A stretch of 64,000 bases of DNA from an uncultured Pseudohongiella sp. Its GTDB lineage: Bacteria > Pseudomonadota > Gammaproteobacteria > Pseudomonadales > Pseudohongiellaceae. A model generated the notes under the pieces. That model was not told the DNA's origin and did not search any database. It saw only the letters and a list, made by a program, of their open reading frames with translations. A program made the translations under genes and the position numbers. This document shows, one piece after another, positions 12,667-35,279 of the stretch. The stretch's first letter is position 1; every line of letters starts with the position of its first letter. The stretch spans positions 785-64,784 of the forward strand of contig CAZUSL010000181.1 of assembly GCA_964622925.1 (NCBI GenBank), written 5' to 3'.

Positions 12667-12672
12667 ACAACC

Positions 12673-14434: not shown

Positions 14435-14474
14435 GGGATATTCAAGAACGCCGCCGTTCCCGGAGAGAACATCC

Positions 14475-15965: not shown

Positions 15966-15981
15966 ATCTCGATCTGACTGC

Positions 15982-16797
15982 TCAAGTGGCAGGCAGCACC
16001 GGTGTCAGCATCGCCCGCCAGTCAGGCGCCAGGTCAGCCACTGCGATGAAATGGGGATTGCGCAAATCCTCTCCCTTGTTGTAGCGCAGCGGCCGGAAAC
16101 CGGTATCGAAGATTTCGCCGCCAGCGGCCGCGAGTACTGCATGGGCCGCGGCGGTGTCCCATTCGAATGTCGGCGCCAAGCGGGGATAGATGTCGGCCTT
16201 GCCTTCGGCGAGCAGGCAGATCTTCAGCGAACTGCCCATGTTGACCATCTCCACGGCGCCATACTCGGCTTCGAGCCGCCGCAGCACACGCTTCACATGC
16301 CGATCAAGATGGCTGCGGCTCGCCACCATTTTCAGCGGAGCATGATCGGATTTCGCCCCGGCGCTTATCGGGACCGGCTCGCTACCGGTATCCTGCCGAA
16401 AAGCGCCATGCCCGATTGCGCCCATATAGCTCACTCCACTGACCGGCACATGCACCACGCCAAGCTCGGCGATGCCATCGCCGACCAGCGCGATATTGAC
16501 CGTGAATTCGCCGTTACGCTTGACGAACTCCCGCGTACCGTCAAGCGGGTCCACGAGCCAATAGCGTTGCCATTGCCGCCGGGTCTCGTAAGTCGGCTGC
16601 GCCGATTCCTCAGAAAGGACCGGCAGCCGCGGTTCGAGTTCGGCCAGGCCGGCTTCGATGATCGCGTTCGCCCGCCGGTCCGCTTCGGTCAGCGGCGAAT
16701 CGTCGTCCTTGTATTGCACGGCAAGGCCGTCGGCGCTGTTATACACTTCCATGATCACCGCACCGGCTCGCCGCGCGATTGCTTCGATTTCCAACAT
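15982..16797 (-). CDS. cysQ: 3'(2'),5'-bisphosphate nucleotidase
   Basis: WLVDPLDGTREFVKRNGEFTVNIALV is the inositol-monophosphatase/CysQ motif. The start is chosen at MLEIEAIARRAGAVIMEVY, which parallels the E. coli CysQ N-terminus as I remember it. The ORF track extends to 16902. Confidence 0.85.
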   Translation of the reverse strand: MLEIEAIARRAGAVIMEVYNSADGLAVQYKDDDSPLTEADRRANAIIEAGLAELEPRLPVLSEESAQPTYETRRQWQRYWLVDPLDGTREFVKRNGEFTVNIALVGDGIAELGVVHVPVSGVSYMGAIGHGAFRQDTGSEPVPISAGAKSDHAPLKMVASRSHLDRHVKRVLRRLEAEYGAVEMVNMGSSLKICLLAEGKADIYPRLAPTFEWDTAAAHAVLAAAGGEIFDTGFRPLRYNKGEDLRNPHFIAVADLAPDWRAMLTPVLPAT

Positions 16798-16816
16798 TTC
16801 CGTCAATTCTGTACCC

Positions 16817-17497
16817 ATGCCTGTTCCAATCCCACTCTGGCCCGAGATCGACACCATCATGTTCGACATGGACGGCACCTTGCTCGACCTGCATTTTGAC
16901 AATTATTTCTGGCGCGTGCTTGTGCCCGAGTCCTATAGCGCCCGGCATGGCGTCAGCCCGCAAGCCGCGCAGGACCTGGTGCAACGGAAAACCGACGAAG
17001 TCTACGGTACGCTGAACTGGTATTGCCTTGACTACTGGGCGCGGGAACTCGATTTAGAAATTGCCGAGCTGAAGCGTACGATCACCAGCAAGATCAGCTT
17101 GCGCCCCAACGTAGAGCCTTTCCTGCGGGCGCTATGGTACACCGGCAAGCGCATGCTGCTGATCACCAACGCCCATCCGGCGAGTCTCGAGATCAAGATG
17201 AACAATGCCGAGATCGCCGCCTATTTCCATCGCTGCATCAGCGCCCACCAGTTGCACCTGTCCAAGGAAAGCCACGGCTTCTGGGAAAAACTGCAGGACC
17301 TGGAACCTTTCGATCCCGGGAGAACCATTCTTTTCGACGACTCATTGCCCGTACTGCGCCGCGCCAGACAGGAGGGCATCCGCCATGTCTACGGCATTCA
17401 CAAACCCGACAGCCGCCGCCCCGCGCTCGATCACGACGAGTTCCCCCTGGTCGAGGATTTCGGCGACCTGCTTCCCGGTTTCCGAAGTCGGATGTAA
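16817..17497 (+). CDS. yrfG: HAD-IA hydrolase, GMP/IMP nucleotidase YrfG-like
   Basis: ATG 16817. IDTIMFDMDGTLLDLHFDNYFWRVLVPE and LNWYCLDYW align with E. coli YrfG from memory. It is followed by hslR, as in E. coli. Confidence 0.8.
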   Translation: MPVPIPLWPEIDTIMFDMDGTLLDLHFDNYFWRVLVPESYSARHGVSPQAAQDLVQRKTDEVYGTLNWYCLDYWARELDLEIAELKRTITSKISLRPNVEPFLRALWYTGKRMLLITNAHPASLEIKMNNAEIAAYFHRCISAHQLHLSKESHGFWEKLQDLEPFDPGRTILFDDSLPVLRRARQEGIRHVYGIHKPDSRRPALDHDEFPLVEDFGDLLPGFRSRM

Positions 17498-17507
17498 GCT
17501 CAACTGC

Positions 17508-17906
17508 ATGAACCGGCCATCGAAATCGGCGGAAGACAACGTGCGGCTCGACAAATGGCTCTGGGCCGCACGCTTCTACAAGACCCGGGCGATCGCCCGC
17601 CAGGCCATCGAGGGCGGCAAGGTCCGCTGCGAGGGCATCCGCACCAAGCCCGGCAAGACCGTCGAGATCGGCATGACGATTCGCCTGCAACAGGGCGATC
17701 GGGAGCGAACCGTCATCGTCGAAGGCGTCCGCAACGACCGCCGTCCCGCCCCCGAAGCGCAACTGCTCTACCGAGAAACCGAGGAAAGCATCCGCCTGCG
17801 AGAGGAACTCGCTGACGAGCGCAAATCCCGTCCCGCCCACTGGCCCCCCGCGAGCCGTCCCACCAAGAAGCAGAGACGGGAGATCAGGAAATTCAAGGAA
17901 AAATAG
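17508..17906 (+). CDS. hslR: Ribosome-associated heat-shock protein Hsp15 (S4 RNA-binding domain)
   Basis: VRLDKWLWAARFYKTRAIARQAIEGGKVRCEG is an S4 motif, followed by a basic C-terminal tail. Confidence 0.85.
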   Translation: MNRPSKSAEDNVRLDKWLWAARFYKTRAIARQAIEGGKVRCEGIRTKPGKTVEIGMTIRLQQGDRERTVIVEGVRNDRRPAPEAQLLYRETEESIRLREELADERKSRPAHWPPASRPTKKQRREIRKFKEK

Positions 17907-18029
17907 AAATATCCCTTCAATTTCCGGAAACGTTTCGCCCGTGTTTTGAAGAGTGCGTGATTCAAAGACACGCATTGACCGGTTACACTCTTTCGGCATA
18001 GATTGACCAGCCTGTTTGGCCTGCCAATC

Positions 18030-18674
18030 ATGATGAGCAGCACCTCGTACTACAACCAGAACCGGGACGCGCTGTTCGAGCAGTATCACGCCTACGACCC
18101 GGAGGTGGTTCATCGCGCCTGGGCGCCGGAGCATCTCAAGGGGCGAAAGCCCGGATTCGCTTGCGACATCGGTGCGGGCACCGGCCGGGACGCCAACTGG
18201 CTCGCCGAACAGGGATGGGAAGTGCTAGCGGTCGAGCCGAGCGACTTGCGCGAACCGGGAGAGGGAAAGTCCAATCCGCGCGTAACCTGGCTCGACGACA
18301 CGCTGCCGGACCTCCGGAAACTGCGCGCCCTGGGCCGGCGATTCGACCTGATCCTGCTGCGCTCGGTCTGGATGCATGTTCCCAGGTCCAGTCAGGAACG
18401 GGCTTTCCGCATCCTCACCGAACTGCTGAATCCCTCAGGCCTGCTCGTAATCAGCTTGCGGCACGGCAGCGACGAGGAGGAAAATCAGGCGCGCGGTTTC
18501 CACTCTGTCAGCGCCGATGATTTGATCCGCTACGCCAGGGACTGCGCCATCAGTCTGCGAGGCCAATACGAACATCCCGACCGGTCGCGGGACCATGTCC
18601 ATTGGGAGTGGCTGGTTTTCGAGATGCCATCCAAACCAAACTTACTTGTTGAAGCATTAGCATTGGCTTGCTAG
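18030..18674 (+). CDS. Class I SAM-dependent methyltransferase
   Basis: ATG 18030 (TTG 18003 is possible). CDIGAGTGRDANWLAEQGWEVLAVEPS is SAM-binding motif I. The last ~15 codons run into AT-rich DNA. Confidence 0.7.
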   Translation: MMSSTSYYNQNRDALFEQYHAYDPEVVHRAWAPEHLKGRKPGFACDIGAGTGRDANWLAEQGWEVLAVEPSDLREPGEGKSNPRVTWLDDTLPDLRKLRALGRRFDLILLRSVWMHVPRSSQERAFRILTELLNPSGLLVISLRHGSDEEENQARGFHSVSADDLIRYARDCAISLRGQYEHPDRSRDHVHWEWLVFEMPSKPNLLVEALALAC

Positions 18675-18863
18675 ATTCTAGTTCCCCACGGAACATATGA
18701 GATGCTGAAGGATATGGTATCAACAGGCAGTCGGAAATTTTTGCAGAAAATTGAGCATTGTCTAGAATCTTGACTACTGTATATAGGCAACTTGGTGTGC
18801 TGGGCACAATAAGCGGATGGCTCTCAACGGATGAGCGATTAAAATTTCTATTTTTTCGGATAT

Positions 18864-19328
18864 TTGATAGTGAAGTACGGCTGGCAATTTGACTTGAGTG
18901 ATTGGCAGAAAATCCCGGATGATCTCCGGGACAGCGCCGCTTGGGTGGGAGTAGACTATACGCTCATTGAATCGGGTCGAGTACCGGAACATCCAGGAGT
19001 ATATCTGTTTTGCGCCCGACCGGTTGGAGTTAAAGAGATTTCTAACTCAGATGCGAAATTGTTTGGGAAGTTGCTAACTCCAATTTATGTTGGCCAGACG
19101 ACGAATCTACGCAAGCGCTTTCGACAGCATTGCCGAAATCCGTCGATTAGGTTGCGAGCAGCGAGTGACTGTTATCGACATTTCTTAAGATTCTGGTTCC
19201 TAAAGAGAAGTGCTCAAAGCATTCTGGAGGAAGAGGCGGCTTTAATCCAATGTTTTGGGCCAACTGCAAACGAGAGATATGGCGTTATCAGGGCGAAAAT
19301 AGACTCGCCAACCCGGATTGGGCTTTAA
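18864..19328 (+). CDS. GIY-YIG-like nuclease-domain protein (154 aa)
   Basis: PGVYLF ... IYVGQTTNLRKRFRQH ... EEEAALIQCFGPTANERYG gives GIY/YIG-like elements plus the conserved Arg and Glu/Asn positions. The spacer between GVY and YVG is unusually long. Start is TTG 18864 or GTG 18870. Confidence 0.55.
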   Translation: MIVKYGWQFDLSDWQKIPDDLRDSAAWVGVDYTLIESGRVPEHPGVYLFCARPVGVKEISNSDAKLFGKLLTPIYVGQTTNLRKRFRQHCRNPSIRLRAASDCYRHFLRFWFLKRSAQSILEEEAALIQCFGPTANERYGVIRAKIDSPTRIGL

Positions 19329-19358
19329 CTGTAAATTTTTCAATTATAGGAGTTATCG

Positions 19359-20741
19359 ATGAACATTTATCCGGCTATGCGAGCGGGCATGGGAACATGG
19401 GAATACTATATCGTGAAGATGCGTATGGAAGACTTGGTTAAGGAAGTTGAGTTCGCTCATGAAATTCACGACAACAAGACCCTAGATGAGGCAATACAGC
19501 GAGGCCTTAATCAAGGAAGAGTGAAGCAGGAGATCGTGAGGTATCTTGCTTTTTCTGAAGATCGATTTTTTAATTCCATTGTGGTTGCTGCACTTGGGGG
19601 CAATCCAAGATTTAGTCCGGTTTCGATTGATGAAGATCCTCAATTCAACCTTATTGGCAGAGATGAATTTAATGACACATTCGGAGTTCTTAGCTTCGAT
19701 GGGAAGCAACACTACTATGCCTTAGACGGCCAACATAGGCTTATGTCAATTAAGACGCTATTGGAGCAGAAAGAGAAAGATGTTCCAAATTTGCCCGATG
19801 GATTTCAAGACGAAGAAATTTCAGTAATAATGCTTGTAAAACAAAATAAAGATGAAAATTTTATGAGAAGTTATAGGAGAATTTTCTCAAACCTAAACCG
19901 GTATGCGAAACCAACTGATGCCGATACTAACATAATCATGGATGAAGATGATCCGTTCGCAATTCTAACTCGAAGACTACTGACGGATCATGAATTCTTC
20001 TGGTGGGGCGGAAAGGCGACTGATTCACCCAAAGTGAAGACGCAAGGGAAAAATTTGAAATCTGGAGAACCATACTTTACCTCATTACAAACCCTTTACA
20101 GTATGAATAAGACTTTGCTTAAGTCTCCAGCAAGAGAAAAGGAACTTTACGGATCAAAAGATTTTCAGAGATTCAGGTCGGGTGAAGATGTCCTAGACGA
20201 ATTATATGAGGAGTTGGCAATATATTGGGATTCATTGATTGAAGCGCTACCTGTACTAAGGTCTGATGCTACAAGAATGAGAACCCATTCGATTGCAGAT
20301 CAAGACCAAGCACATGAAGAAGGAAAGGAGCCACTAACAGATCACTTGCTGTTTTGGCCAATCGGACAGGACATATTAGCCAAAATGGCAAGGTTGTTGC
20401 TTAACCGTCGTTTACCAGATCCCGACAACCCCAGCAAAGAGGAGGCAACCGCCTGTCTAGAGGTTTTAAACACCGTCAATTTGGAATTGCACTCCCCGCC
20501 GTGGCGCAATGTACTGCTGGTACCTGACCCTGTTAAAGATGGTACATGGCGAATGCGTAGTGAAGAGCGAAAACAAGCTGTAGAAGTGAGCGAACGGATT
20601 CTAAGGATGATGACAGGCATTGATGATCTGGGTAAGGAGGAAAGCCTAGAGCTAAAGACAGAATGGCATGCTCTGCTGTGGCCTAGGCCCGAGAAACGTG
20701 AAGTAGATGAATGGTGGGATACTATCTGCGCTCGTAAATGA
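19359..20741 (+). CDS. DGQHR-domain protein (DndB-like; SspF-like?)
   Basis: RBS TAGGAG lies 6 nt before ATG 19359. It has an exact DGQHR motif in HYYALDGQHRLMSIKTLL and an N-terminus (RAGMGTWEYYIVKM..FNSIVVAALGG) like the DndB/DGQHR family. Confidence 0.85.
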   Translation: MNIYPAMRAGMGTWEYYIVKMRMEDLVKEVEFAHEIHDNKTLDEAIQRGLNQGRVKQEIVRYLAFSEDRFFNSIVVAALGGNPRFSPVSIDEDPQFNLIGRDEFNDTFGVLSFDGKQHYYALDGQHRLMSIKTLLEQKEKDVPNLPDGFQDEEISVIMLVKQNKDENFMRSYRRIFSNLNRYAKPTDADTNIIMDEDDPFAILTRRLLTDHEFFWWGGKATDSPKVKTQGKNLKSGEPYFTSLQTLYSMNKTLLKSPAREKELYGSKDFQRFRSGEDVLDELYEELAIYWDSLIEALPVLRSDATRMRTHSIADQDQAHEEGKEPLTDHLLFWPIGQDILAKMARLLLNRRLPDPDNPSKEEATACLEVLNTVNLELHSPPWRNVLLVPDPVKDGTWRMRSEERKQAVEVSERILRMMTGIDDLGKEESLELKTEWHALLWPRPEKREVDEWWDTICARK

Positions 20742-20750
20742 TAGTTGCCC

Positions 20751-21575
20751 CTATTGCTGCTGGCTGAATTTTCTATACAGCACTTTACAAGGGCTGCGAC
20801 GATCCTTTGCGAACGAGATGGCGTCCGGATGGAGGATTCTCAAATGATTAATTTGCTTTAAGCCGATATCTAAAAGTATCGAAATTCCGTCTAATGTTTT
20901 CTTATCTGGTTCATACTGATACAGAACTGGAATTGGAAGGCTCGCCAAATTTTTGGAGTAACCAACTTCCCACGGATAGTTCGCATCTGATCCACTTTCA
21001 TCATAGTTGGTTGAGAGTTTAAACAGCGCGCGGCGTAGACAAGTAATTTTTGGAGATCTCCAACTGCGGAGTCGGACCTCAATGCCCAGAGATATCCAAG
21101 GCAACCAACTTCTCCAATCATCTACAGGCAAACCATTGAACTTTCTGATCTCTGAATCTATCGATTGAATAAAGTTGTGCCGCAATTTTCCATTTGTATG
21201 GAAACAATCATCAGAAATTATCCAAGCCAACTTATCCGACGACGGTCTTCCCGTTGCTGTTAAGTTTTGACCTAGCAATTGAAATGTATCATATGCATCA
21301 CTAACTGCAAATTTCTGCCTTTTTGTTAACTTTAGGTCGCAACCAATTCCATCTTCTCTTTCGAAATTTAGCTCATCTAGAAGTTGTGAAATTGTATAGT
21401 CTTTAGGCAATCCCATTAGAATACTACGTAGTTTCGGAGCAATATTTAGCCCGCACAAGGAGGAGCAATGAAGAGATTCGTCAGCCAATTTCTGATAATT
21501 TTCGACATTAAACAACTTTCGAACCATTGAATTAGTCCTTCTTGATAGAATGTTGGGAATATCCAAAATTGACAT
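20751..21575 (-). CDS. Hypothetical protein, 274 aa, no recognisable domain (SspG-like position)
   Basis: A long ORF in AT-rich DNA, where spurious ORFs are rare. It lies 39 nt downstream of the SNF2 gene on the same strand. I could recognise no motif. Confidence 0.6.
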   Translation of the reverse strand: MSILDIPNILSRRTNSMVRKLFNVENYQKLADESLHCSSLCGLNIAPKLRSILMGLPKDYTISQLLDELNFEREDGIGCDLKLTKRQKFAVSDAYDTFQLLGQNLTATGRPSSDKLAWIISDDCFHTNGKLRHNFIQSIDSEIRKFNGLPVDDWRSWLPWISLGIEVRLRSWRSPKITCLRRALFKLSTNYDESGSDANYPWEVGYSKNLASLPIPVLYQYEPDKKTLDGISILLDIGLKQINHLRILHPDAISFAKDRRSPCKVLYRKFSQQQ

Positions 21576-21614
21576 GTCTACATCGCCTTAGTCACAGAAT
21601 TAGGAAATGGAGTT

Positions 21615-23258
21615 TTACAGAACATCGTTGAATTCTTTTGGCGTTAATTCTCTATCGTCTTGCGAATCAGTGCTAAGCTTTGAAATTATGCTGGAAAACA
21701 GCTCAAATTTGGAATTGAGAATCTCTTCGAGTCTTGATTCGACTGTGTTGATAGTCCTTAACTTGTATACATTGACATCCTTCTTTTGGCCGATTCGATA
21801 TACTCTATCTCTAGCTTGACTGTTTATGGCCGGATTCCACCACTCATTCAGGAATATCACATGATTAGCGGAAGTTAGTGTTACTCCTTCAGCCATCGCG
21901 CGTGTTGTACAAAGAAGTATGGAAGGTTGTGCACACACTTGAAATTTGCTAATTATCTCAATTCTGTCACTGGCTGATGATGATCCAGTCAGGATGGCCA
22001 GATAACTATTGCTCCTGAACTCCTTCTCCAGCCTTGCATTTAGTTCCGCAAGGGGGCGTACAAGATAGGAAAAGATTACAACTTTTTCATCTAACTGTTG
22101 AATTGCTTTCACCAATTCGATGGCGCGATCAATTTTGGAACTGCGACCGGTTTTTGGATCGAAGTCACAGATTTCCCGCAATTGTCCAAAAATCTTAATC
22201 CAATTGGCGAGTCTAGAAGTATTGCTTCGTTTGACTATTTCATTATAGGCATCTCGCTGTTCACTGATTAGCGGTATGTGCTCGATTTTCTCAAATATAT
22301 TCGGAAGTTCATTGGATATAACCTTTTTGTTTCGCCGAAGAATGTACTTTGACGCTAGAGTTCGCAATGAAGCAGATCCAAGTTTTCCATCGCTTATTGC
22401 GACTCTTTTTCGATCAATTAGATGTAGTATGGAAGCAAGTTCAATGGGCCTGTTTTCTAATGGTGTGCCTGAAAGTCCCCATGTAATATTGGGAAATATG
22501 TCGTAAACGGATTTATAAGAATTAGATTTGTAATTCTTGAGTTTGTGTATTTCATCTAATATGACAAGATCAAATGTGCCAGATTTAGGTCTGCTGAATC
22601 TTACAGTCTCGTAGTTTGTAATGGCAACGTGACATTGATCGCCTATGGTAGTCCAAAGATTCTCAGATACGGTGGCAAAGACGGAAACTATACATAGATG
22701 AGGCGCCCACAATTTGAGTTCTGCTTCCCATACCCCTATAAGTGATTTTGGGCAAATAACCAACGCACTTCTGATTTTTCTATCTCGTAGTTGATGATCA
22801 AGGGCAGCGATTGCTTGAAGAGTCTTGCCCAGGCCCATATCGTCAGCCAAAATTCCAGATTCGCGGCCCTTTAGCCAAGTCATTCCAGCTTCTTGGTGTT
22901 CCTTGAACGGATAGCTTGGAAGAAATCGAAGTAAGCGAAATCGCCAAATCTCTCCTATATTAAAGAAAGCTGTGTCTCGGTTGGCCTTGTTAATTCTTAT
23001 AGCCTGAGGGTCGGCTTGTGGAATCAGTATATTCTTCGACTTGGCTGAAGAAGATATTCTTCCTAGTTCAGTACGCGTAGAATACAACTCTTCCTTTAGT
23101 AAGTATAGTTCTTTGGAGTTAAGGTAAAAAAATTCATCAGAGAAAAGCGCATCATCAATTTCTGGGAATTGCTTAATTTCTGGATACAATCCAATTTCGA
23201 GACCTATAGAGCTGCGCTTAATCTCGCAAATACTGGAATTATGTCGATCTACACTCAT
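21615..23258 (-). CDS. SNF2-family helicase, short form (547 aa; SspH-like?)
   Basis: ILADDMGLGKTLQAIA (motif I), DLVILDEIHKLKN (motif II), LSGTPLENRPIELASIL (motif III), and the C-terminal helicase segment LTSANHVIFLNEWWNPAINSQARDRVYRIGQKKDVNVY. Confidence 0.9.
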   Translation of the reverse strand: MSVDRHNSSICEIKRSSIGLEIGLYPEIKQFPEIDDALFSDEFFYLNSKELYLLKEELYSTRTELGRISSSAKSKNILIPQADPQAIRINKANRDTAFFNIGEIWRFRLLRFLPSYPFKEHQEAGMTWLKGRESGILADDMGLGKTLQAIAALDHQLRDRKIRSALVICPKSLIGVWEAELKLWAPHLCIVSVFATVSENLWTTIGDQCHVAITNYETVRFSRPKSGTFDLVILDEIHKLKNYKSNSYKSVYDIFPNITWGLSGTPLENRPIELASILHLIDRKRVAISDGKLGSASLRTLASKYILRRNKKVISNELPNIFEKIEHIPLISEQRDAYNEIVKRSNTSRLANWIKIFGQLREICDFDPKTGRSSKIDRAIELVKAIQQLDEKVVIFSYLVRPLAELNARLEKEFRSNSYLAILTGSSSASDRIEIISKFQVCAQPSILLCTTRAMAEGVTLTSANHVIFLNEWWNPAINSQARDRVYRIGQKKDVNVYKLRTINTVESRLEEILNSKFELFSSIISKLSTDSQDDRELTPKEFNDVL

Positions 23259-23576
23259 TCAATCAGTTCCTGGATTTTTGATTACTAGCAAGAAAAGTCC
23301 GCTGTATATCTAGAAACGGATTTCTGATATCGAAATTTTGGAAAATTGTGTAATGATTGACGTATTTTTTCATCTAATTGGGCTAAATTGTCAGTTTAGA
23401 GATTTCAACGCATACATTCGCTAATCGTAGTGTGAAAGATGTCTTGTACCTAAAAGCAGTCGGAGATTCAACAAAAATTAAGCAAAACAGGTATACATGC
23501 CGAGTATAGTGTAAGATGGTGCTCGCGGAAGGGATGGCGAGCGAAGTTTTGTATTCGCGTAAACTGCTGATATTTA

Positions 23577-24503
23577 ATGAAATTTAGTACCTCACAAGTC
23601 GCATTCGGACGCCACGAGAGCTTCCATCTGCGATTCTGTTGGCTTTCCAAGGGATTTACAGAACTGCAACGCGACCCGACACTTGTCTCCGATGTGGATC
23701 AAGCTACGCTTGCCCTAGGTGTTGGCAAGAACATGGTGGTGTCTATCCGATATTGGTTGCGGGCGGCTCGGATGATAGGAGAATCGGACAGCAGCTCCAC
23801 TGAACTGGGCGGCTTCCTGCTTCATCCGAGCCACGGGAAAGATCCGTTCCTTGAGGACGAGGGAACATTGTGGCTACTCCACTGGCTCATCGCTTCCAAT
23901 ACGGAGACCGCAACTACCATTGCCTGGTTTTTTAGTAAATTCCACAAACCCCGCTTTAGTCAACAAGAGTTGCGTGCCGCCCTAGGGGCCTATCTGCAAA
24001 GCTCTGTCGAGTCTTACAGAAGACCGGCAGCAAGTACGCTGCGGACCGACGTGTCAGTCCTCGCGAGAACCTATGCAAGACACCAGGGCGCAAGCTTAGT
24101 CGAAGAGCTGATGGATTCGCCGCTGGCCGAGCTTGGACTGATTACGGAAACCAGGAAAAGCAGCTACCAATCATTATTCGGTGAGCGCCCGAGCTTGCCT
24201 TGCGAAATACTCGGATTCGCATTGCTGCAACTGTTGCAACGCCGGGACGTTCAGGTCTTGCCTCTTGAAGATGTACTCCAGTCCACGGACGGGTACGTAT
24301 CCCCAGGTACGATTTTTCGCCTGACCGAAGCAGGTTTGATGAGCAAACTTGAAGAACTTGAAAAAGCCTACCCGCACATTTTCGATCTACGCGAGACTGC
24401 AGGCTTACGGCAACTTTTCTTGCGACAGGAATTACCTGCCATTGAGCTACTAGAGTCCTACTACCAGCAGGGGTCCAGAGTGGCACCGGAGGTCGCGGCA
24501 TGA
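23577..24503 (+). CDS. sspB: DUF4007-like protein (SspB-like)
   Basis: The N-terminus FGRHESFHLRFCWLSKGF matches my memory of the DUF4007 family hallmark. Its stop overlaps the next ATG (ATGA 24500-24503). Confidence 0.65.
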   Translation: MKFSTSQVAFGRHESFHLRFCWLSKGFTELQRDPTLVSDVDQATLALGVGKNMVVSIRYWLRAARMIGESDSSSTELGGFLLHPSHGKDPFLEDEGTLWLLHWLIASNTETATTIAWFFSKFHKPRFSQQELRAALGAYLQSSVESYRRPAASTLRTDVSVLARTYARHQGASLVEELMDSPLAELGLITETRKSSYQSLFGERPSLPCEILGFALLQLLQRRDVQVLPLEDVLQSTDGYVSPGTIFRLTEAGLMSKLEELEKAYPHIFDLRETAGLRQLFLRQELPAIELLESYYQQGSRVAPEVAA

Positions 24504-27500
24504 GCTTGGCTGATTACGTTCAAGTAAGAACGGCCTATACGCGGTCAATCAACCTGGAACGAGACTCAAAGTCGAAAGGAGTCGAATGCACCTATATCCC
24601 GACCACTCGCGCACTGCGCACTCTCGCAACGATTACAGAACGCTTTAGCAACGAGGACCAGCCACGTTCCTGGTCCTTGGTCGGGCCCTATGGATCGGGT
24701 AAGTCCTCATTTGCACTGTTTTTGTCCGAACTCCTAGGCAGTCAGAAGTTGCCCCATACGAAAACTGCATTGACTCAGCTTGGAAGGAACGACAGTCTTT
24801 TGCACTCCCGATTTCTGGAGGAGACAAAGGCCTCCGATGGGTATGTATCCGTACTTGTCTCCGGCACCCCTGAGCGGCTGTCTTTGAGGTACTTGAATGC
24901 CTTGATGACTGCCGTTGGCGAGTATTGGATCGGTAGGCGGGGTAAGAAGCCGCGCATTTTCGACAAGATGCGAGGATTCAGGGAAGCAGGACAGGTCTCT
25001 ATTTCGGAACTACTGGAACTTACTCAGGAATGCCAGCAGGTACTTTCCAAAGTTGGATGTCCGGGGATACTCGTAGTTTTCGATGAGTTCGGCAAATTCC
25101 TCGAGTACGAATCACACACACCCGATGCCAATGACGTCTTCCTGTTGCAGGCCTTGGCCGAACATGCCTACACGGCCAGCGAAACGAAGCTGCTTGTAAT
25201 TGCGCTGCTTCATCAGTCGATCGAGCAATACGCGCTCGGAGTTGGCGAAACCCTCAAAAACGAATGGGCAAAGATTCAGGGCCGATTCGAAGAAGTCCCT
25301 TTTATCGAAACTGCCGAGCAAACTCTGCGCGTTGTCCGGGCGGCATTGGCACATCGAGAGTTCGACTCCGAATCCCGTGGTCAAATCGAAGCTGATGTCC
25401 TCAAAGCCGTGGAAATTTTACAGGGCGAAGGCGTATTAACCGATTTTCAGGACGTAGCCGAGACCGCCAAGCTATTCGCCGGTCTGTATCCCCTTCATCC
25501 CATCAGCGCCATTATTCTTCCCTACCTCTGCCAGTTGATTTCTCAGAACGAGCGTAGCCTTTTCGGTTATCTGGGAAGCAGGGAGCGAGATGGATTTCAG
25601 GACATGCTTGAGCGAATTGGCTCGCTAGGTGAGTTCATCAGGCCCGACCATCTTTTCGACTATTTCCTGGCCAACCAGCAGTCCATCTATGGAGACTACC
25701 TGACTCAACGTCGCTGGGCTGAGTCGGTATCCGCGGTCGAACGAGTCGCCGATGCCACCAAACAGCAGATGGCGATTCTAAAGGCGGTAGCTCTGGTCAA
25801 TCTACTAGGAAACCGGGGTCGAGTCAGGGCTTCTGAAGCACTGATCCGTTCAGTATATGGGCCTTCCGCTTCGAAGGACCTTAAAGCACTGCAAGAGGCT
25901 TCGGTCCTCATTCATCGTAAGTTCAATAACGAATTCCGTGTTTGGCAGGGGAGTGATTTTGATCTTGAGTCTCGATTGAGGGAGCAGGCTAACCAACTCG
26001 GCCCATTTTCATTGGCGGAAGAATTGACGAGATATAAGGCGGTCGCCCCAATCGTGGCTCGCAAATACAGTATCGAGAAAGGAACGCTGCGCTACTTCGA
26101 CGTTGAGTTTGTGGACGCCTTGACTTGGGAAAAAACAGAAAAAAAGGGAAATCCACAAATCTTCTTGTTTCTGAGTGCGGGCAGAGACGACACACATATA
26201 TACGAGCAGAAAGCCAGAGGCCACCTTGCCAGACACGGTTTGGTTGCACTTTCCCATGCCGGTCAATCTTTGAAGTCTTTGGTCTCCGAGCGCCTGGCGT
26301 TGGAGGAAATAGAAAGAACCGCGAAAGAACTTGCCGAAGATCCCGTTGCGCGCAAGGAACTTAAAGCACGGCTTGAGGTCGTGAAACACTTTGAGGCAAC
26401 CCACATCTCGCACTTGCTCGACAATCCTCAGCAGCTTGACTGGCGTTTCGGCGCCTGCGAACTTCCGGTTGCCTCGCGTCGGCAGTTCCAGTCACAACTG
26501 TCTTCCGTGCTTGAGGAGATATATCCCAACTCTCCCGAAATCCACAACGAACTGATCAATCGAGATCGGCTTTCCTCGCAGGCGGCCGCTGCCCGAAACA
26601 AACTGCTTTCCTTGCTGCTGACGGACACGGACAAGGAAGACTTGGGAATTGATCCGAAGAAGTTCCCTCCAGAAAAAGCGATTTATAGAGCCACGCTGAA
26701 AGAGACCAAGATTCACAAAGAGACATCGAAAGGTTGGGCGCTTCATGCGCCCCCTAAAAACAGCTCGCTGTTCGATGCCTGGAACCGAGTCGAGAAATTT
26801 CTGGCCTCCACTGAAGACGAGGCTCGCCCGTTCACCGCCATAAACGCTGAGTTGATGAATCGGCCTTATGGAGTGAAAGCGGGCATCCTGCCTATTCTGT
26901 GGATTTGCGTTTACCTTGTTTACGAGTACGAGATCGCCTTGTACGAGAACGGCCGTTATATCCCTGGATTCACCGCGGAGGCCTTGGAGCGGTTCGTAAA
27001 GCGTCCAGATTTGTTTCAGGTACAAAGGTTTCGCATTCAGGGATTACGCAAATCCATTTTTGAGCAATACCGCAAAGTCATAAGCGGTGGGGCGCAACCT
27101 AAAACAATCCTGCATGTCGCCAAACCATTAGCAGCGTTTATGCATGAACTTCCAGAGTACACATTGAAGACAAGAGTGGGTCTATCCCACCAAGCAATAG
27201 CGGTTCGGGAGGCCTTTCAACTAGCGAAGACTCCCAAGAATCTCCTGTTCGAGAGATTGCCAATGGCGCTTGATTATCGAGGCAGGGGCAGCGACCCCGA
27301 CGAGCGCATTGATAGTTTCGCAGAACAGCTAAAAGAGGTGCTGCGGGAGTTCAAGAACGCCCATGCAAGGATGAAGGATGCGTTACGGGAGAGATTGGCG
27401 GAGACGGTTGGTCTCAATCCTAAACTGCCACTTGCAGACTTGAGAGCGCAAAGCTTGGGGCGCTGCCATGGTCTTGAGAACCAGACTGTAGACGTTCATG

Positions 27501-27991
27501 GGCTGCGCGGCTTGCTTCTCAGAATCAATCGCGAAGAAGGCTCCGACGAGCAGTGGTTAGAGAACATCCTGATGTTTCTTGCCGCGAAGCCAAGCACGAA
27601 GTGGACCGATACGGACAGGAACGAAGCCGAATACAAACTTGCCGAGTTCGCACGTAGACTAGCAGACCTCTACCGGCTCGCAGCCGAAGAGCGGCGCATC
27701 CAGCTCAGCGGCAACCAGGATTTCGACGTGTACTTGCTTAAGTCATTGAAATCTGGCGGACAATTTCTTGATGAGATCATCACCATCGACCGCGAAAAGC
27801 AAGAGCACACCAGGAATATCAAGCAAGAAATCGAGGCCGCATTGCAGAAATCGGGCAATCGCGACTTGCAACTCGCGGCCCTCGCACAAGTTGTCGACGA
27901 ATTCTTGAAATCCTCGGACCAGCCGTCAAAATTAACAGGGGCTGACGAAGAGACGCCCGCCATAAACTTTGTCCGAGATCGCAAGTCGTAA
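24500..27991 (+). CDS. sspC: Large P-loop ATPase, 1163 aa (SspC-like)
   Basis: Walker A LVGPYGSGKSSFALFL and Walker B ILVVFDEFGKFLEY. It is translationally coupled on both sides. Confidence 0.75.
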   Translation: MSLADYVQVRTAYTRSINLERDSKSKGVECTYIPTTRALRTLATITERFSNEDQPRSWSLVGPYGSGKSSFALFLSELLGSQKLPHTKTALTQLGRNDSLLHSRFLEETKASDGYVSVLVSGTPERLSLRYLNALMTAVGEYWIGRRGKKPRIFDKMRGFREAGQVSISELLELTQECQQVLSKVGCPGILVVFDEFGKFLEYESHTPDANDVFLLQALAEHAYTASETKLLVIALLHQSIEQYALGVGETLKNEWAKIQGRFEEVPFIETAEQTLRVVRAALAHREFDSESRGQIEADVLKAVEILQGEGVLTDFQDVAETAKLFAGLYPLHPISAIILPYLCQLISQNERSLFGYLGSRERDGFQDMLERIGSLGEFIRPDHLFDYFLANQQSIYGDYLTQRRWAESVSAVERVADATKQQMAILKAVALVNLLGNRGRVRASEALIRSVYGPSASKDLKALQEASVLIHRKFNNEFRVWQGSDFDLESRLREQANQLGPFSLAEELTRYKAVAPIVARKYSIEKGTLRYFDVEFVDALTWEKTEKKGNPQIFLFLSAGRDDTHIYEQKARGHLARHGLVALSHAGQSLKSLVSERLALEEIERTAKELAEDPVARKELKARLEVVKHFEATHISHLLDNPQQLDWRFGACELPVASRRQFQSQLSSVLEEIYPNSPEIHNELINRDRLSSQAAAARNKLLSLLLTDTDKEDLGIDPKKFPPEKAIYRATLKETKIHKETSKGWALHAPPKNSSLFDAWNRVEKFLASTEDEARPFTAINAELMNRPYGVKAGILPILWICVYLVYEYEIALYENGRYIPGFTAEALERFVKRPDLFQVQRFRIQGLRKSIFEQYRKVISGGAQPKTILHVAKPLAAFMHELPEYTLKTRVGLSHQAIAVREAFQLAKTPKNLLFERLPMALDYRGRGSDPDERIDSFAEQLKEVLREFKNAHARMKDALRERLAETVGLNPKLPLADLRAQSLGRCHGLENQTVDVHGLRGLLLRINREEGSDEQWLENILMFLAAKPSTKWTDTDRNEAEYKLAEFARRLADLYRLAAEERRIQLSGNQDFDVYLLKSLKSGGQFLDEIITIDREKQEHTRNIKQEIEAALQKSGNRDLQLAALAQVVDEFLKSSDQPSKLTGADEETPAINFVRDRKS

Positions 27992-28854
27992 TGCACTTTT
28001 CAGAGCTACCGCAACAGGGAGACAACGAAACCCGGCACGTCCTCGGGCTGTCCGGGGGCAAGGACAGTGCCGCCTTGGCCATCTACCTGAAAGACCACTA
28101 CCCGGCCATCAGTGAGCGGGTAGAGTACTTTTTCTCCGATACCGGCGCCGAACTGAAAGAGGCTTACGAGTTTCTTGATCGGCTGGAAACCTGGCTCGGC
28201 AAGGAGATCGTCCGCCTCAGCACCGGCCGCGAATTCGATCATTGGCTCAAGGTCCACAACGGCATGCTCCCTTCGGCGCGGCAGCGCTGGTGCACCCGGA
28301 CCATGAAGATTCAACCTTTTGAAAGATTTGTAGGGGATGACCCGGTCATAACCTATGTCGGCATAAGGGCGGATGAGCAACGGGAGGGCTATATCAGCAC
28401 CAAGCCAAGCATCAAGGCCGTATTCCCATTCATCGAGGACGGCATCGCCAAGGCGGACGTGTTCCGGTTCCTCGAAGAAACTGTCGGCGTGCCCGAATAC
28501 TACAAATGGCGCTCGCGGTCTGGCTGCTACTTCTGCTTCTTCCAGCGCCAGGACGAGTGGCTGGGATTGAAAGAGAACCACCCCGAACTCTTCGAACGGG
28601 CAAAGCGCTATGAAATGCGCAAGCGGGAGCGCTACGACCTCGATGTCGCTGGCACCAGCCTCGTCGGTAGCGGCAACTACACGTGGAGCAGCGAAGGAAC
28701 TCTCGACGAGCTCGTAACGAAAGCCGAAAAGCGCCGCAAGGAATTGGGCGTCATCGCCAGCACCGCGGACAAGAACAAACGCTGGCAAGACCTCCTCCTC
28801 GAACAAGACGAAGACGACCCCGAAGACCAGGCCTGCCTAATTTGCTCGCTCTGA
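27991..28854 (+). CDS. sspD: PAPS-reductase-family PP-loop ATP pyrophosphatase (SspD-like)
   Basis: PP-loop LGLSGGKDSAALAIYL. Two CxxC pairs are present (CYFC, CLIC). ATG 27991 overlaps the upstream TAA (TAATG). Confidence 0.8.
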   Translation: MHFSELPQQGDNETRHVLGLSGGKDSAALAIYLKDHYPAISERVEYFFSDTGAELKEAYEFLDRLETWLGKEIVRLSTGREFDHWLKVHNGMLPSARQRWCTRTMKIQPFERFVGDDPVITYVGIRADEQREGYISTKPSIKAVFPFIEDGIAKADVFRFLEETVGVPEYYKWRSRSGCYFCFFQRQDEWLGLKENHPELFERAKRYEMRKRERYDLDVAGTSLVGSGNYTWSSEGTLDELVTKAEKRRKELGVIASTADKNKRWQDLLLEQDEDDPEDQACLICSL

Positions 28855-29091
28855 GGCTGCCTCCATTTCATCGATCGACTTTGCTTCGCCTTTGTAGGCG
28901 AGACACCCAAATACTTGCTCTGGATGGGTTTCAGGGAAATGCGGGTAAGCCTTCAACAGGACGCCATCAGGTCTATCCTCCACAAGTAGGCGAGTGCCAG
29001 CTTTCCAGTGGCGCGCCTTACGGATGGACTTGGGCAGGACAATCTGCCCCTTGGCGGAGACAGTTGTCGTAATCCGACTATCCTCAGGCAT
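28837..29091 (-). CDS. AbrB/MazE/SpoVT-family antitoxin-like DNA-binding protein (orphan)
   Basis: TTTVSAKGQIVLPKSIRKARHWKAGTRLLVED is a swapped-hairpin AbrB motif. The C-terminal FGCLAYKGEAKSIDEMEAA is typical of VapB-type antitoxins. No toxin ORF lies downstream. Confidence 0.8.
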   Translation of the reverse strand: MPEDSRITTTVSAKGQIVLPKSIRKARHWKAGTRLLVEDRPDGVLLKAYPHFPETHPEQVFGCLAYKGEAKSIDEMEAASERAN

Positions 29092-29240
29092 AGCAAATTC
29101 TCGTAAAAGACTGACGAACCACTAGTGTAAGCCAAGTCGACAGCATTGAGGCGTTCGCGCCATGTCGCGCCACCCCCCGATTTTTGCCATAATGCCGCGA
29201 CTTTCGCGTTACACCGTTGTTTCCCCTTTCCGGAGTCGTT

Positions 29241-30842
29241 GTGGCCGACCGTTTCGACGCTGCCCTGAAGCGCTACGGGCTACCCCTTTTTCAACCTGAA
29301 TGGACCGCGATCTGCCGCGGGATCGAGAAGGAATGCCTGCGCGTGACGCCCGAAGGCCGTATTTCCCGGCGGCCGCATCCGCCCGGGCTCGGCTCTGCGC
29401 TGAAGAATCCGTATATCACCACCGATTTCTCCGAAGCCCTGCTCGAATTCATCACGCCCAAGGATCAGAGCATCGAAGGCTGCCTGGGGATGCTGGAAGA
29501 CATCCATCGATTCACGCTGGCGAACATGGAAGAGGGCGAGATTCTCTGGGCTTCGAGCATGCCCTGTCCGGCGGGCCTGGAAGGCGAAGTGCCGATCGCG
29601 AGTTACGGCAGTTCCAACATCGGCCGCCTCAAGCGCCTGTATCGCACCGGACTTTCGTATCGCTACGACAGTCTCATGCAGGCCATTGCCGGGTTGCACT
29701 ACAACTTTTCCATGCCGGAGGAGTTCTGGCAGCCGTACCAGCGCATTGTCGGTTTCAACGGTTCCCTGCGGGACTTTCGCACCGAGAGTTATCTGCATCT
29801 GATCCGTAATTTCCATCGCCATTCCTGGCTGTTGCTCTACCTGTTCGGCGCTTCGCCCGCAGCGGCGAGCAGTTTCGTTGAAGGCCGCGAACATCACTTG
29901 CAGCGCATGGAAACGGGGACCATGTATCTGCCGAACGCCACCTGTCTGCGCATGGGCCGGCTCGGCTATCAAAGCGATGCGCAGAAATCCCTGTTCGTCT
30001 GTTACAACGATCTGCCGCTCTATGTCGAATGCCTGCAAGGCGCCATGAAAACGCCTTATCCGCCTTACGAGGAAATCGGACACAAGGTCGATGGCGAGTA
30101 TCGACAAATCAATGTCAATCTGCTGCAACTGGAGAACGAGTTCTACAGTACGATCCGCCCCAAGCGGATTGCGCGCGGCGGCGAACGGCCCCTTGATGCG
30201 CTCGTGCTTCATGGCATCGAGTATGTCGAGTTGCGCGCATTCGATCTCAATCCCTTTCTGCCGCTTGGCATCGATGCCGAGCAGGTGCGTTTCATCGATA
30301 CTTTCCTGCTGCATTGCCTGCTCGGCGAGAGCCCGCAATGCAATCGAGCGGAATTCTTCGAAGTGGCGGACAATGTTCTTCGCGTGGTGGAAGAGGGTCG
30401 CGATATGTCGATCGAACTCAATCGCGGCGGCAAGCCCGTCGCCCTGGCGGATTGGGCCGAAGGATTCCTCGCCGACATGAAGCACGCGGCGGCCCTGATG
30501 GATCATTTCCATGGCGGCGGCTACCTGGAAAGCGTCGAGCGGCAGGAAGAGAAACTCCGTAATCCGGCGCTTACGCCTTCCGCCATGATGCTGGAAGAGA
30601 TGGAACGCGGCGGACTGAGCTTCTGCGAGTTCTCGATGGCGGTTTCAAAGCGGCATGCGCAGACCCTGCTGGCGGAACCACTGGACGAGAACGTGCGCGA
30701 GTTGATGGAGCGCACCGCCGCGGAATCGCTTGAGCGGCAGCGCGAGGCCGAAGCCGCGGACAAGATCAGTTTCGATGAGTTTCTGCGGGAGTGGAACGCC
30801 TGGCAGCCGCTTGGTCACGCTATCCAGGAAAGCGAGGCATAA
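29241..30842 (+). CDS. gshA: Glutamate-cysteine ligase
   Basis: RGIEKECLRV..., DFSEALLEFITP and GIEYVELRAFDLNPF are GshA hallmarks. GTG 29241 is preceded by GGAG (the ORF-track start is TTG 29217). Confidence 0.9.
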   Translation: MADRFDAALKRYGLPLFQPEWTAICRGIEKECLRVTPEGRISRRPHPPGLGSALKNPYITTDFSEALLEFITPKDQSIEGCLGMLEDIHRFTLANMEEGEILWASSMPCPAGLEGEVPIASYGSSNIGRLKRLYRTGLSYRYDSLMQAIAGLHYNFSMPEEFWQPYQRIVGFNGSLRDFRTESYLHLIRNFHRHSWLLLYLFGASPAAASSFVEGREHHLQRMETGTMYLPNATCLRMGRLGYQSDAQKSLFVCYNDLPLYVECLQGAMKTPYPPYEEIGHKVDGEYRQINVNLLQLENEFYSTIRPKRIARGGERPLDALVLHGIEYVELRAFDLNPFLPLGIDAEQVRFIDTFLLHCLLGESPQCNRAEFFEVADNVLRVVEEGRDMSIELNRGGKPVALADWAEGFLADMKHAAALMDHFHGGGYLESVERQEEKLRNPALTPSAMMLEEMERGGLSFCEFSMAVSKRHAQTLLAEPLDENVRELMERTAAESLERQREAEAADKISFDEFLREWNAWQPLGHAIQESEA

Positions 30843-30874
30843 GGTACCATCCGCCTTAACGCGGGGGAGGTTTT

Positions 30875-31396
30875 ATGAAACTGGCAATTCCTGACAATCG
30901 CATTCTGAACTACGCGATTTTTGCCTTCACGATGTCCACCATCGGCATCGTGCTCTACATGCAATACGTCATGTTTCTGCCGCCGTGCGGGCTTTGCATA
31001 ACCCAGCGCATATTCATCATCCTTTGCGGCGTAACCTGTCTCGCGGGGGCGATCCACAACCCGCGCCCGAAAGGCCAGCGCATCTACGCCGGGGTGGCGG
31101 GGGCGATGACCATTTTCGGCAGCTATTTCGCCGGCCGGCAGATCTGGCTGCAACATCTGCCCGAAGATCAGATTCCCGCCTGCGGCCCGGGCCTGAACTA
31201 TCTCCTGCAGAACTTCCCGCTGGTAGACGCGCTGAACTTCCTGTTGCAGGGCGACGGCAATTGCGCCGAAGTGCAATTCCGCTTTCTCGGCCTGCTGACC
31301 ATTCCCGAAATGGCCATGGTCGCTTTCGTCATGCTGTTCGCAGCCTGCATGTTCATGCTGTTCCGCGATCAATGGGCGCAAACCGCCCGGGACTGA
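30875..31396 (+). CDS. dsbB: Disulfide bond formation protein B
   Basis: Four TM helices, a PPCGLC pair in loop 1 and a second Cys pair (ACGPG...GNCAE) in loop 2. Confidence 0.85.
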   Translation: MKLAIPDNRILNYAIFAFTMSTIGIVLYMQYVMFLPPCGLCITQRIFIILCGVTCLAGAIHNPRPKGQRIYAGVAGAMTIFGSYFAGRQIWLQHLPEDQIPACGPGLNYLLQNFPLVDALNFLLQGDGNCAEVQFRFLGLLTIPEMAMVAFVMLFAACMFMLFRDQWAQTARD

Positions 31397-31399
31397 TCG

Positions 31400-32311: not shown

Positions 32312-32323
32312 CCCGACCGCCTT

Positions 32324-35248: not shown

Positions 35249-35279
35249 GGTCGATTCGCTCCGATTTTTCCTGGCTGCA

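Follow-up and report, generated by a model that had tools for sequence, protein, structure and literature searches.

The locus described here raises the question of what is encoded by an AT-rich block of eight genes that separates a methyltransferase gene from gshA, and whether these genes act together. The block is located in a stretch of 64,000 nucleotides, referred to as the window, in contig CAZUSL010000181.1 (assembly GCA_964622925.1) of an uncultured Pseudohongiella sp., and the host is a marine gammaproteobacterium, probably a sponge associate. An initial annotation of the window had called the block a defence island whose gene combination could not be matched to a canonical system.

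The block was found to combine the genes of a DNA phosphorothioation (PT) machinery, SspB-SspC-SspD, with the genes of a small GIY-YIG nuclease, a DndB-family protein with a DGQHR motif and an SNF2-family helicase, referred to below as the trio. We put at roughly 0.6 the probability that it is an integrase-less hotspot defence island encoding a two-module, PT-based restriction-modification-like system in which the trio is the cognate effector. Statistically, the coupling of the trio to Ssp is well supported; the mode of action of the trio is one that we infer. All eight open reading frames (ORFs) that had been proposed, with the domains assigned to them, were recovered with Pfam, PADLOC and NCBIfam:

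18864-19328, plus strand: small stand-alone GIY-YIG nuclease, 154 aa (start at 18,870 according to the gene caller)
19359-20741, plus strand: DndB-family protein (ParB/Srx fold, DGQHR motif), 460 aa
20751-21575, minus strand: orphan all-helical protein (unk274), 274 aa, or 258 aa from the likely true start, Met17
21615-23258, minus strand: SNF2-family helicase/translocase, 547 aa
23577-24503, plus strand: SspB (DUF4007), DNA-binding/nicking subunit
24500-27991, plus strand: SspC, large ATPase related to BrxC/PglY
27991-28854, plus strand: SspD, PAPS-reductase-like PP-loop ATP pyrophosphatase/sulfurtransferase
28837-29091, minus strand: solitary AbrB/MazE-fold (SpoVT-AbrB) protein, 84 aa

The Ssp module and the genes linked to it

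By homology, the right half of the block is a canonical SspB-SspC-SspD set, the putative machinery of single-strand DNA PT, and each of the three proteins fell within its Ssp modification family. SspB was matched from end to end by Pfam DUF4007 (6e-75, positions 1-288 of 288) and by the PADLOC model of SspB (4.9e-81, full length). SspC matched its PADLOC model with E=0 (1223.7 bits, positions 1-1062 of 1064) and had a Walker A motif, GPYGSGKS, at residue 62, while SspD (PADLOC, 1.3e-101) had a PP-loop, SGGKDS, at residue 21. A truncation of sspD by the right junction of the block was considered and rejected, since the end of the protein (…CLICSL, followed by the stop codon) is native and kept across the family. 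The labels previously given to the three proteins, DUF4007-like, 1163-aa P-loop ATPase and PAPS reductase, were therefore right but too general, and the statement that no canonical system matches failed for SspBCD, which PADLOC recognizes. It stood for the GIY-YIG, DGQHR, 274-aa and SNF2 proteins, which corresponded to none of the PADLOC systems or NCBIfam equivalogs.

Scanning a single genome from each species gave 199 relatives of the DGQHR protein; a crude estimate of the share of the module sets these against the roughly 3% of 185,579 species that would have sspBCD. The best 80 loci, sampled by similarity to the DGQHR protein of the window, were analysed, with genes counted by tblastn at coverage >0.5 (L003-L082; labels from L003 to L087 denote the related loci or contigs that were compared with the window). 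The loci came from about 12 phyla (Poribacteria, Chloroflexota, Acidobacteriota, Gemmatimonadota, Latescibacterota, Gamma-, Alpha- and Betaproteobacteria, Spirochaetia, Binatia, Actinomycetota, Verrucomicrobiota, Planctomycetota). The genes that co-occurred with DGQHR were those of SspD (68/80), SspC (63/80), SspB (59/80), the GIY-YIG protein (55/80), the SNF2 protein (53/80), the 274-aa protein (9/80) and AbrB (1/80). Ssp genes were located within 10 kb in 58 of the 62 DGQHR loci with full flanks of 10 kb on either side (94%); in published surveys, sspBCD was present in about 3% of genomes (PMC12914056).

The most frequent layout was a co-directional run of sspB, sspC, sspD, GIY, DGQHR and SNF2, optionally preceded by sspA, with gaps that were mostly 0-40 bp, and the GIY-YIG gene was directly upstream of the DGQHR gene and co-directional with it in 48 of the 80 loci. 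The arrangement in the window, with the GIY and DGQHR genes convergent with those of unk274 and SNF2 and followed by sspBCD, is a variant belonging to the closest relatives, L003-L012. Where sspBCD was inverted or relocated, the GIY-DGQHR pair, or GIY-DGQHR-SNF2, remained contiguous. SspA adjoined the cassette in 36/80 loci. No tblastn match to a cysteine desulfurase (class-V aminotransferase, SspA/IscS) was obtained within the 64-kb window; IscS is accepted to act in trans for Ssp (PMC8092258, PMC12914056). The full cassette was also present in a cultured organism, Stieleria tagensis TO1_6 (L073), and carriage of the cassette by phages or viruses was essentially absent. When strains identical to the source were sought by exact protein matches, the source assembly, SRR16090826, was the only one obtained.

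The slot beside sspBCD was occupied by other genes elsewhere: PbeA and PbeC in L083, SspE (2e-256) in L024 and L028, and ParB-HNH or HNH_2 genes in Poribacteria. A further variant was observed in Acidobacteriota (L052-L080), where a 214-aa protein with a weak GIY-YIG match (E 0.054) and a 626-aa protein with a weak DndB match (E 0.004) replaced the small GIY-YIG protein; neither matched a PADLOC model. These loci had two DndB-like proteins upstream of SNF2 (for example, L071 8,093-9,976 and L064 7,513-8,157).

The two halves of the cassette differed in their evolutionary history. When pairwise-identity matrices were correlated over 28 loci and the window (mirror-tree), r was 0.92-0.97 among SspB, SspC and SspD, 0.91 for DGQHR with SNF2, 0.82 for DGQHR with GIY, and 0.58-0.61 for DGQHR with SspB, SspC or SspD. 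The GC content of the DGQHR gene averaged 8 points below that of sspC and the flanks and was >5 points lower in 49 loci, while sspC tracked the GC of the host. Between the window and L003, synonymous divergence was 0.09-0.42 for the methyltransferase, gshA, AbrB and sspD genes, ~0.9-1.0 for sspB and sspC, and from 1.4 to saturated for GIY, SNF2, DGQHR and unk274. The ratio of nonsynonymous to synonymous divergence (dN/dS) was 0.02-0.16 for all genes apart from AbrB (0.36), with 0.11-0.16 for the putative effector module, and these low values indicate that the genes are functional and under purifying selection. The effector alleles long predate the separation of the two hosts, pointing to allelic exchange and not to fast evolution in place. 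The sequences thus suggest two modules with separate histories, the effector module having the lower GC and, it seems, the more frequent exchange.

The AT-richness of the genes in this position was systematic, both across the 80 loci and in PbeAC of L083 (10.6-15.9 kb). Frequent recent transfer out of an AT-rich pool is one possible reason; others are silencing, the control of expression, or the composition of the proteins.

The distinct composition and history of the effector module, together with the separate promoters predicted in the window, would also suit an independent system unrelated to PT, either type IV-like or Zorya/Dpd-like, in which the GIY-YIG, DGQHR, unk274 and SNF2 genes reside beside sspBCD through hotspot clustering. 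Four loci with full flanks had no ssp genes within 10 kb, and the site is a general defence hotspot with toxin-antitoxin (TA), Abi, Pbe and HNH cargo in relatives. This explanation is nonetheless improbable, since 1) island clustering would give far less than the 94% co-occurrence with ssp genes seen over about 12 phyla, 2) the genes usually form one tight operon with gaps of 0-40 bp and 3) the only distant plasmid relatives that were found also adjoin PT machinery, Ssp or Dnd. One of these relatives is on plasmid pROLI83 of Roseobacter litoralis B14 (L087), where sspABCD is followed by distant GIY-like and DGQHR genes, labelled "hypothetical protein" and "DGQHR domain-containing protein" by the Prokaryotic Genome Annotation Pipeline. 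The other, on plasmid pRspNXC14a of Rhizobium sp. NXC14 (L086, 7,412-21,190), is a distant GIY-like and DGQHR pair with a methyltransferase, immediately upstream of dndBCDE and a cysteine desulfurase; a CxC-ATPase (Pbe-type) system is located downstream.

Nearly all carriers among the sampled loci were metagenome-assembled genomes (MAGs) of lineages typical of sponge microbiomes (about 17 Poribacteria, with Caldilineaceae, Dehalococcoidia and Acidobacteriota). The identity of the DGQHR protein was 45-58% across the roughly 12 phyla in this sample, which is biased toward relatives of the query. The distribution suggests habitat-bound horizontal transfer of the DGQHR family.

Predicted roles of the trio

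The GIY-YIG protein scored 25.6 bits against the Pfam GIY-YIG model (cut-off 22.6) and had the full catalytic set of residues, G45-x-Y47, Y75-x-G77, R85, H89, E124 and N136, which were at least 90% conserved in 53 homologues. It is predicted to be an effector nuclease or nickase. No PADLOC model matched this protein or the 274-aa protein.

The SNF2 protein (Pfam SNF2-rel_dom 9e-40, Helicase_C 5e-16) consists of the helicase core alone and lacks a fused nuclease. Motifs I, II and VI were intact (GLGKT142, DEIH235 and QARDRVYRIGQ481) and conserved in 46-48 of 49 homologues. Its PADLOC matches were confined to the helicase cores of ZorD (1.6e-71), DpdE (4.7e-52) and DrmD. The protein is predicted to be the double-stranded DNA translocase of the effector module. 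A set of 49-aa ENA peptides that clustered with it was unrelated in sequence and was discarded as a clustering artefact.

The DGQHR protein belongs to the Pfam DndB family, PF14072 (115.5 bits against a threshold of 29.1; 3.5e-33 over residues 4-387), and also matched TIGR03187 (3e-34). It fell well short of the DndB equivalog TIGR03233 (62.6 against 328 bits), PADLOC gave only a weak DndB match, and the island has no dndC, dndD or dndE. On these grounds the protein is classified as a DndB-family paralogue and not as DndB. Homologues of equal length numbered more than 1,300, and the DGQHR motif was present in 78 of the 81 members of its cluster. Within the effector module, the protein is predicted to be an NTP-dependent switch or sensor that binds DNA.

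The proposed mechanism comprises two modules. In the first, SspBCD, with a cysteine desulfurase of the IscS/SspA type encoded elsewhere, would write single-strand PT marks on the host chromosome, as its homology suggests. In the second, the GIY-YIG, DGQHR and SNF2 proteins, here together with unk274, would constitute the cognate effector: the SNF2 protein may translocate along DNA, the ParB-fold DGQHR protein would serve as the NTP-dependent, DNA-binding switch that reads the modification status, and the GIY-YIG protein would nick or cleave DNA judged to be foreign. PT licenses attack in SspE systems and blocks attack in SspFGH and DndFGH, and the mark could act in either way here. An effector role is indicated by the conserved catalytic and ATPase motifs of the trio, by purifying selection and by the occupation of the same slot elsewhere by PT-linked restriction genes.

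The full-length relationship to DndB brings in an alternative, that the DGQHR protein does for Ssp what DndB does for Dnd, as an NTP-modulated regulator or limiter of PT modification, so that the GIY-YIG and SNF2 proteins would be either the sole restriction parts or passengers. When the family was compared by hhalign with canonical DndB, the probability was 95.9 over 315 columns, indicating homology along the whole length; with the SspE of L028 it was 17.5 over 48 columns around the DGQxR motif. DndB is a documented negative regulator (PMC10853773, PMC4507180), and the DGQHR gene stays with sspBCD in loci where GIY/SNF2 is absent or SspE is present (L024, L028, L030 and L058). An operator-like sequence shared by the two promoter regions of the island could also favour regulation. 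The regions concerned were:

18675-18863, plus strand: predicted promoter region of the GIY-DGQHR unit, with a sigma-70-like site, TTTGCA-17-TAGAAT, at 18,740-18,768 (consensus match only)
23259-23576, between divergent genes: AT-rich intergenic region separating SNF2 (minus strand) from sspB (plus strand), with the second copy of a 13-nt motif at 23,456-23,468

The first copy of the motif, GCAGTCGGAAATT, at 18,727-18,739, abuts the -35-like hexamer of the predicted sigma-70-like site. The general form, GCAGTCGGA[A/G]ATT, had two occurrences in 64 kb, one in each promoter region of the island, where 0.14 would be expected by chance. In L003, the copy in front of GIY was kept and that in front of sspB was not. 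The motif may be an operator, and as such is a weak lead.

Several observations speak against the regulator hypothesis: 1) the DGQHR protein co-diverges with the SNF2 and GIY proteins and not with SspBCD, 2) its gene is low in GC, as theirs are, and stays beside them where sspBCD is inverted, 3) a nuclease gene separates it from sspD in most loci, 4) the motif upstream of sspB is missing in L003 and 5) the distant GIY-like and DGQHR pair of the Rhizobium plasmid coexists with the canonical dndB of its dndBCDE locus, which argues that the paralogue is not simply a regulator. On this evidence, we consider a purely regulatory DGQHR protein unlikely.

A second alternative arises from the nuclease, which had a weak NCBIfam similarity to the N-terminal domains of UvrC and Cho (E ~1e-3). 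The accessory genes might be a maintenance or repair module for PT-DNA, dealing with nicks or oxidative lesions by means of a UvrC/Cho-like GIY-YIG protein and an SNF2 remodeller, and the main role of the locus would then be epigenetic or redox, not antiviral. Many sspBCD loci are "orphan", and roles of PT other than defence have been proposed (PMC8092258, PMC9239176). The placement in a hotspot beside other defence cargo, the exchange of the slot with bona fide PT-linked restriction modules (PbeAC and SspE), the saturated synonymous divergence and allele swapping typical of defence genes, and an SNF2 protein closest to the defence helicases ZorD, DpdE and DrmD make a repair module very improbable.

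The assignment of the trio as a cognate effector of Ssp also has points against it. The GIY-YIG and SNF2 genes were each missing from about one third of the loci, Poribacteria lacked SNF2, and the four loci with full flanks and no ssp genes nearby had the DGQHR gene nevertheless. SspE and DGQHR were found together without GIY or SNF2 in L024 and L028, so the DGQHR protein may serve any nuclease or none. Because the loci were sampled by similarity to the DGQHR protein, the counts do not show the frequency of the module among all Ssp systems. An AlphaFold2 (AF2) model of the DGQHR protein (mean predicted local distance difference test, pLDDT, 79.5) had no Foldseek match in the PDB below E=1, so that support for a sensor fold was absent, and a search of PDB sequences with the family profile gave no match. 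With both searches empty, there is no structural argument for or against the sensor role. DndB is a regulator and DpdB a modification cofactor, and this precedent would assign the DGQHR protein to modification and not to restriction.

The effector proposal is directly testable, since two cultured carriers are available, S. tagensis TO1_6 and R. litoralis B14 with pROLI83.

The insertion site and the remaining genes

The genes on either side of the island are resident genes of the host:

18033-18674, plus strand: class-I S-adenosylmethionine (SAM) methyltransferase of the small-molecule type, left flank (Pfam Methyltransf_23, 1e-14)
29241-30842, plus strand: gshA, glutamate-cysteine ligase, right flank (TIGR01434, 1.9e-169), syntenic with L084

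The inserted segment was delimited to 18,629-29,163 (10,535 bp) from blastn synteny with L084, from GC and from tetranucleotide composition. L084 is a MAG contig with a methyltransferase 78% identical to that of the window, and in it the methyltransferase, gshA, DsbB and radical SAM genes are directly adjacent, representing the empty site. Positions 10,826-18,628 of the window corresponded to 1-10,683 of L084 and positions 29,164-32,314 to 10,783-14,018, and a spacer of about 99 bp occupied the place of the 10,535-bp island. The limits follow from the end of the left homology at the junction and the resumption of synteny at 29,164. The homology of the methyltransferases of the window, L003, L004 and L084 ended after "...WEWLVF" (nt ~18,622-18,628), beyond which each genome had its own C-terminal tail; the last 17 methyltransferase codons of the window (…MPSKPNLLVEALALAC, then stop) are island DNA.

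The GC of the window outside the island was 0.613 (standard deviation 0.027, 104 windows of 500 bp) and that of the island 0.478. The change occurred in two steps, with a GC of 0.415 (mean z -7.1) at 18,629-23,576 and of 0.533 (z -3.0) at 23,577-28,854, and the tetranucleotide distance in the island reached z = 14.7. The initial annotation had placed the block at 18640-29150, within about 15 bp of the real borders, and the abrupt drop in composition that it described in the last methyltransferase codons, with recovery before gshA, was confirmed by the sliding-window GC and tetranucleotide z values. The direct adjacency of the methyltransferase gene and gshA in relatives, which it had suggested looking for, was found in L084 and strongly supports the island interpretation.

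No tRNA or tmRNA gene was detected in the 64-kb window, nor was there a match to any Rfam family, and only chance-level short matches came up when direct repeats at the flanks and att sites were sought. The eight ORFs leave free intergenic DNA of 189, 318 and 149 bp only, so no recombinase or integrase gene can be concealed in the island. The block accordingly lacks the recombinase, tRNA/att site and direct repeats of a classical integrative island, in agreement with the original observation that integrase, tRNA and flanking repeats were missing.

The site has instead the properties of a hotspot-type defence island, namely common flanking core genes with an empty site (L084) or other cargo in relatives. 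L003 and L004 had the same cassette as the window at the same site. L083, with a methyltransferase 81% identical, had PbeA (2e-176) and PbeC (8e-46) followed by sspB-sspC-sspD, and also AbiE, PIN/Phd and BrnTA modules between duplicated flanking genes. In this locus, the GC of PbeAC was 0.37-0.43 (~0.40) and that of the adjoining sspBCD 0.55-0.58 (~0.56). The site of L085 (80% identical) contained HigBA, FitA, a methyltransferase-HNH fusion, a ScoMcrA-type SBD-HNH gene, a lone sspD-like gene, Xre-RES and Fic. The term defence island was thus upheld as regards the island, by the empty site, and as regards defence by the homology of the right half to the Ssp system, which has been characterised experimentally.

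Duplications were present in two of these loci. L083 had 2-3 copies of an S4/HSP15 gene (3,142-3,549; 6,530-6,937; ~8,032-8,117) and a methyltransferase fragment (9,120-9,416), and L085 a second methyltransferase copy fused to HNH_4 (6,010-6,648 and 8,620-10,320). The duplicated flanking core genes around the cargo look like scars of recombination-mediated cargo exchange. With no integrase and no att site, homologous recombination through the conserved flanks is the most economical route, and we infer that cargo is exchanged in this way. The locus offers a clean natural case in which, at a hotspot that lacks an integrase, effector modules are swapped while the modification module beside them is stable.

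The AbrB gene (Pfam MazE_antitoxin 8e-8, TIGR01439 3e-13) lies inside the insertion, where it overlaps sspD tail to tail by 18 nt. The AbrB fold assigned to its product was correct, but the product is not an antitoxin with a partner: no toxin partner was present among the antisense and neighbouring ORFs, which had no domains, and the gene does not form a type II TA pair. The single related locus with AbrB was L003, and the gene is absent from the empty site L084. It is a solitary passenger outside the conserved cassette.

The 274-aa protein, unk274, had no match in Pfam, PADLOC or NCBIfam, and searches of the PDB with its family profile and of Pfam with each member (E<=1) were also empty. Its AF2 model (pLDDT 88, predicted TM-score 0.84) had no Foldseek match in the PDB. 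Only 66 representatives were found among 1.84 billion, and within this type of cassette the protein is an accessory confined to the gammaproteobacterial subclade. Elsewhere the domain occurs as the C-terminal domain of proteins of 780-1,050 aa with Sigma70_r4 and RNA polymerase alpha-CTD-like helix-turn-helix (HTH) domains (P0133, P0135, P0138, P0168 and P0169), which hints at a DNA- or transcription-linked role. The possibility that unk274 is the detached nuclease domain of large SNF2 proteins was rejected, since the large carriers have HTH and not helicase domains.

Elsewhere in the window, positions 32,315-38,147 were a second insertion relative to L084 (between 14,018 and 14,050 of the latter), with host-like GC of 0.610 and genes for a GT87-like membrane protein, a GT2 glycosyltransferase, a DUF547 protein and an outer-membrane beta-barrel, none of which is defence-like. 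The AT skew of -0.3 to -0.45 at 32.2-33.7 kb is due to the gene of the GT87-like membrane protein. A mild tetranucleotide deviation (z = 2.9) was seen at 45,001-50,000 in an otherwise uniform background.

Comparison with known systems

In its proposed mode of action, the island resembles the PT-based restriction-modification systems Ssp-SspE, Ssp-SspFGH, Dnd-DndFGH and Dnd-Pbe. A close parallel is SspABCD-SspE. As far as Xiong et al. 2020 is represented in PMC8092258, SspE is an effector that combines a ParB/Srx-fold DGQxR NTPase element with a nuclease. The island has the same SspB/SspC/SspD module and likewise combines a ParB/Srx-fold DGQxR element with a nuclease. It differs in that there is no SspE, the GIY-YIG nuclease is a separate protein instead of a fused DUF1524/HNH domain, an SNF2 protein is added and sspA is not adjacent. 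No island protein matched the PADLOC models of SspE (DUF262/GmrSD_N and DUF1524/GmrSD_C), on which the true SspE of L028 scored 2e-256.

SspBCD-SspFGH resembles the island as a combination of sspBCD with a multi-gene effector and IscS in trans, and it demonstrates that several effector types serve one Ssp module. SspF, SspG and SspH have no homology to annotated families, except for a Walker A motif in SspF and an FtsK/SpoIIIE-like C-terminus in SspH (PMC8092258). An identity of the trio with SspFGH was rejected, as its GIY-YIG, DndB-family and SNF2 content differs from the description of SspFGH in that paper, the comparison being by description only.

About 84% of sspBCD loci have no known partner; further restriction counterparts were predicted, and the question was raised whether these loci have other partners or are true orphans (PMC8092258). 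The trio, conserved, syntenic and under purifying selection, is a concrete candidate for such a partner. Its logic is distinct from that of SspE and SspFGH: the GIY-YIG nuclease stands alone and is joined by an SNF2 motor and a DndB-like protein with a ParB fold. A broader proposal, on balance slightly doubtful, is that the trio is a third Ssp-coupled restriction class beside SspE and SspFGH, in which a DndB paralogue is not a regulator but the status sensor or switch of a split nuclease-translocase, that it has spread horizontally across at least 12 sponge-habitat phyla, and that it explains part of the ~84% of orphan sspBCD loci. If that were true, the DndB family would gain a role beyond regulation.

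DGQHR paralogues and helicase-type proteins linked to Dnd PT genes were predicted computationally in 2011 to be components of PT-dependent restriction (ProPhylo, PMC3226654). These Dnd-associated families, TIGR04172 (DGQHR protein 1) and TIGR04095 (res-type "DNA phosphorothioation system restriction enzyme"), are similar to the trio in that a DGQHR paralogue and a helicase are strictly linked to PT genes. Unlike the trio, they accompany DndCDE and not SspBCD, and no GIY-YIG partner appears in their descriptions; the island proteins did not reach the NCBIfam cut-offs (TIGR04172, 32.8 against 450 bits; TIGR04095, 26.5 against 600 bits). Nucleases of diverse types beside Dnd genes, GIY-YIG/URI included, were catalogued in 2024 (PMC10853773).

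The Dpd system, with the DGQHR ATPase DpdB and the SNF2 protein DpdE, also brings a DGQHR-family protein and an SNF2 protein together in one DNA-modification-based defence cluster, and the SNF2 core of the island is closest to those of Zorya ZorD and DpdE. The island differs from Dpd and Zorya in having no DpdA/TGT, DpdC, ZorABC or Mrr nuclease domain, and its chemistry is PT and not deazaguanine. It belongs to neither system: the NCBIfam score for DpdE was 79.9 against 500 with no TGT-like gene in the island, and the match to ZorD was limited to positions 443-885 of 908, with an NCBIfam score of 121.9 against 1500.

PbeABCD, or CxC-ABC-ATPase, is a PT-associated restriction module (PMC10853773). 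In L083, PbeAC holds exactly the slot beside sspBCD that is held by the trio in the window, it is equally AT-rich (~0.40 GC) and it is a helicase-nuclease effector. The proteins themselves are unrelated, as Pbe consists of a PLD/HKD-SF2 helicase and an ABC ATPase, while the island has GIY-YIG, DndB-like and SNF2 proteins. In the searchable literature, with subscription-only papers outside its scope, no description of a cassette of sspBCD with GIY-YIG, DGQHR and SNF2 genes was found. While SspBCD and the principle of PT-based restriction were already known, the Ssp-linked GIY-YIG/DGQHR/SNF2 trio is probably new.

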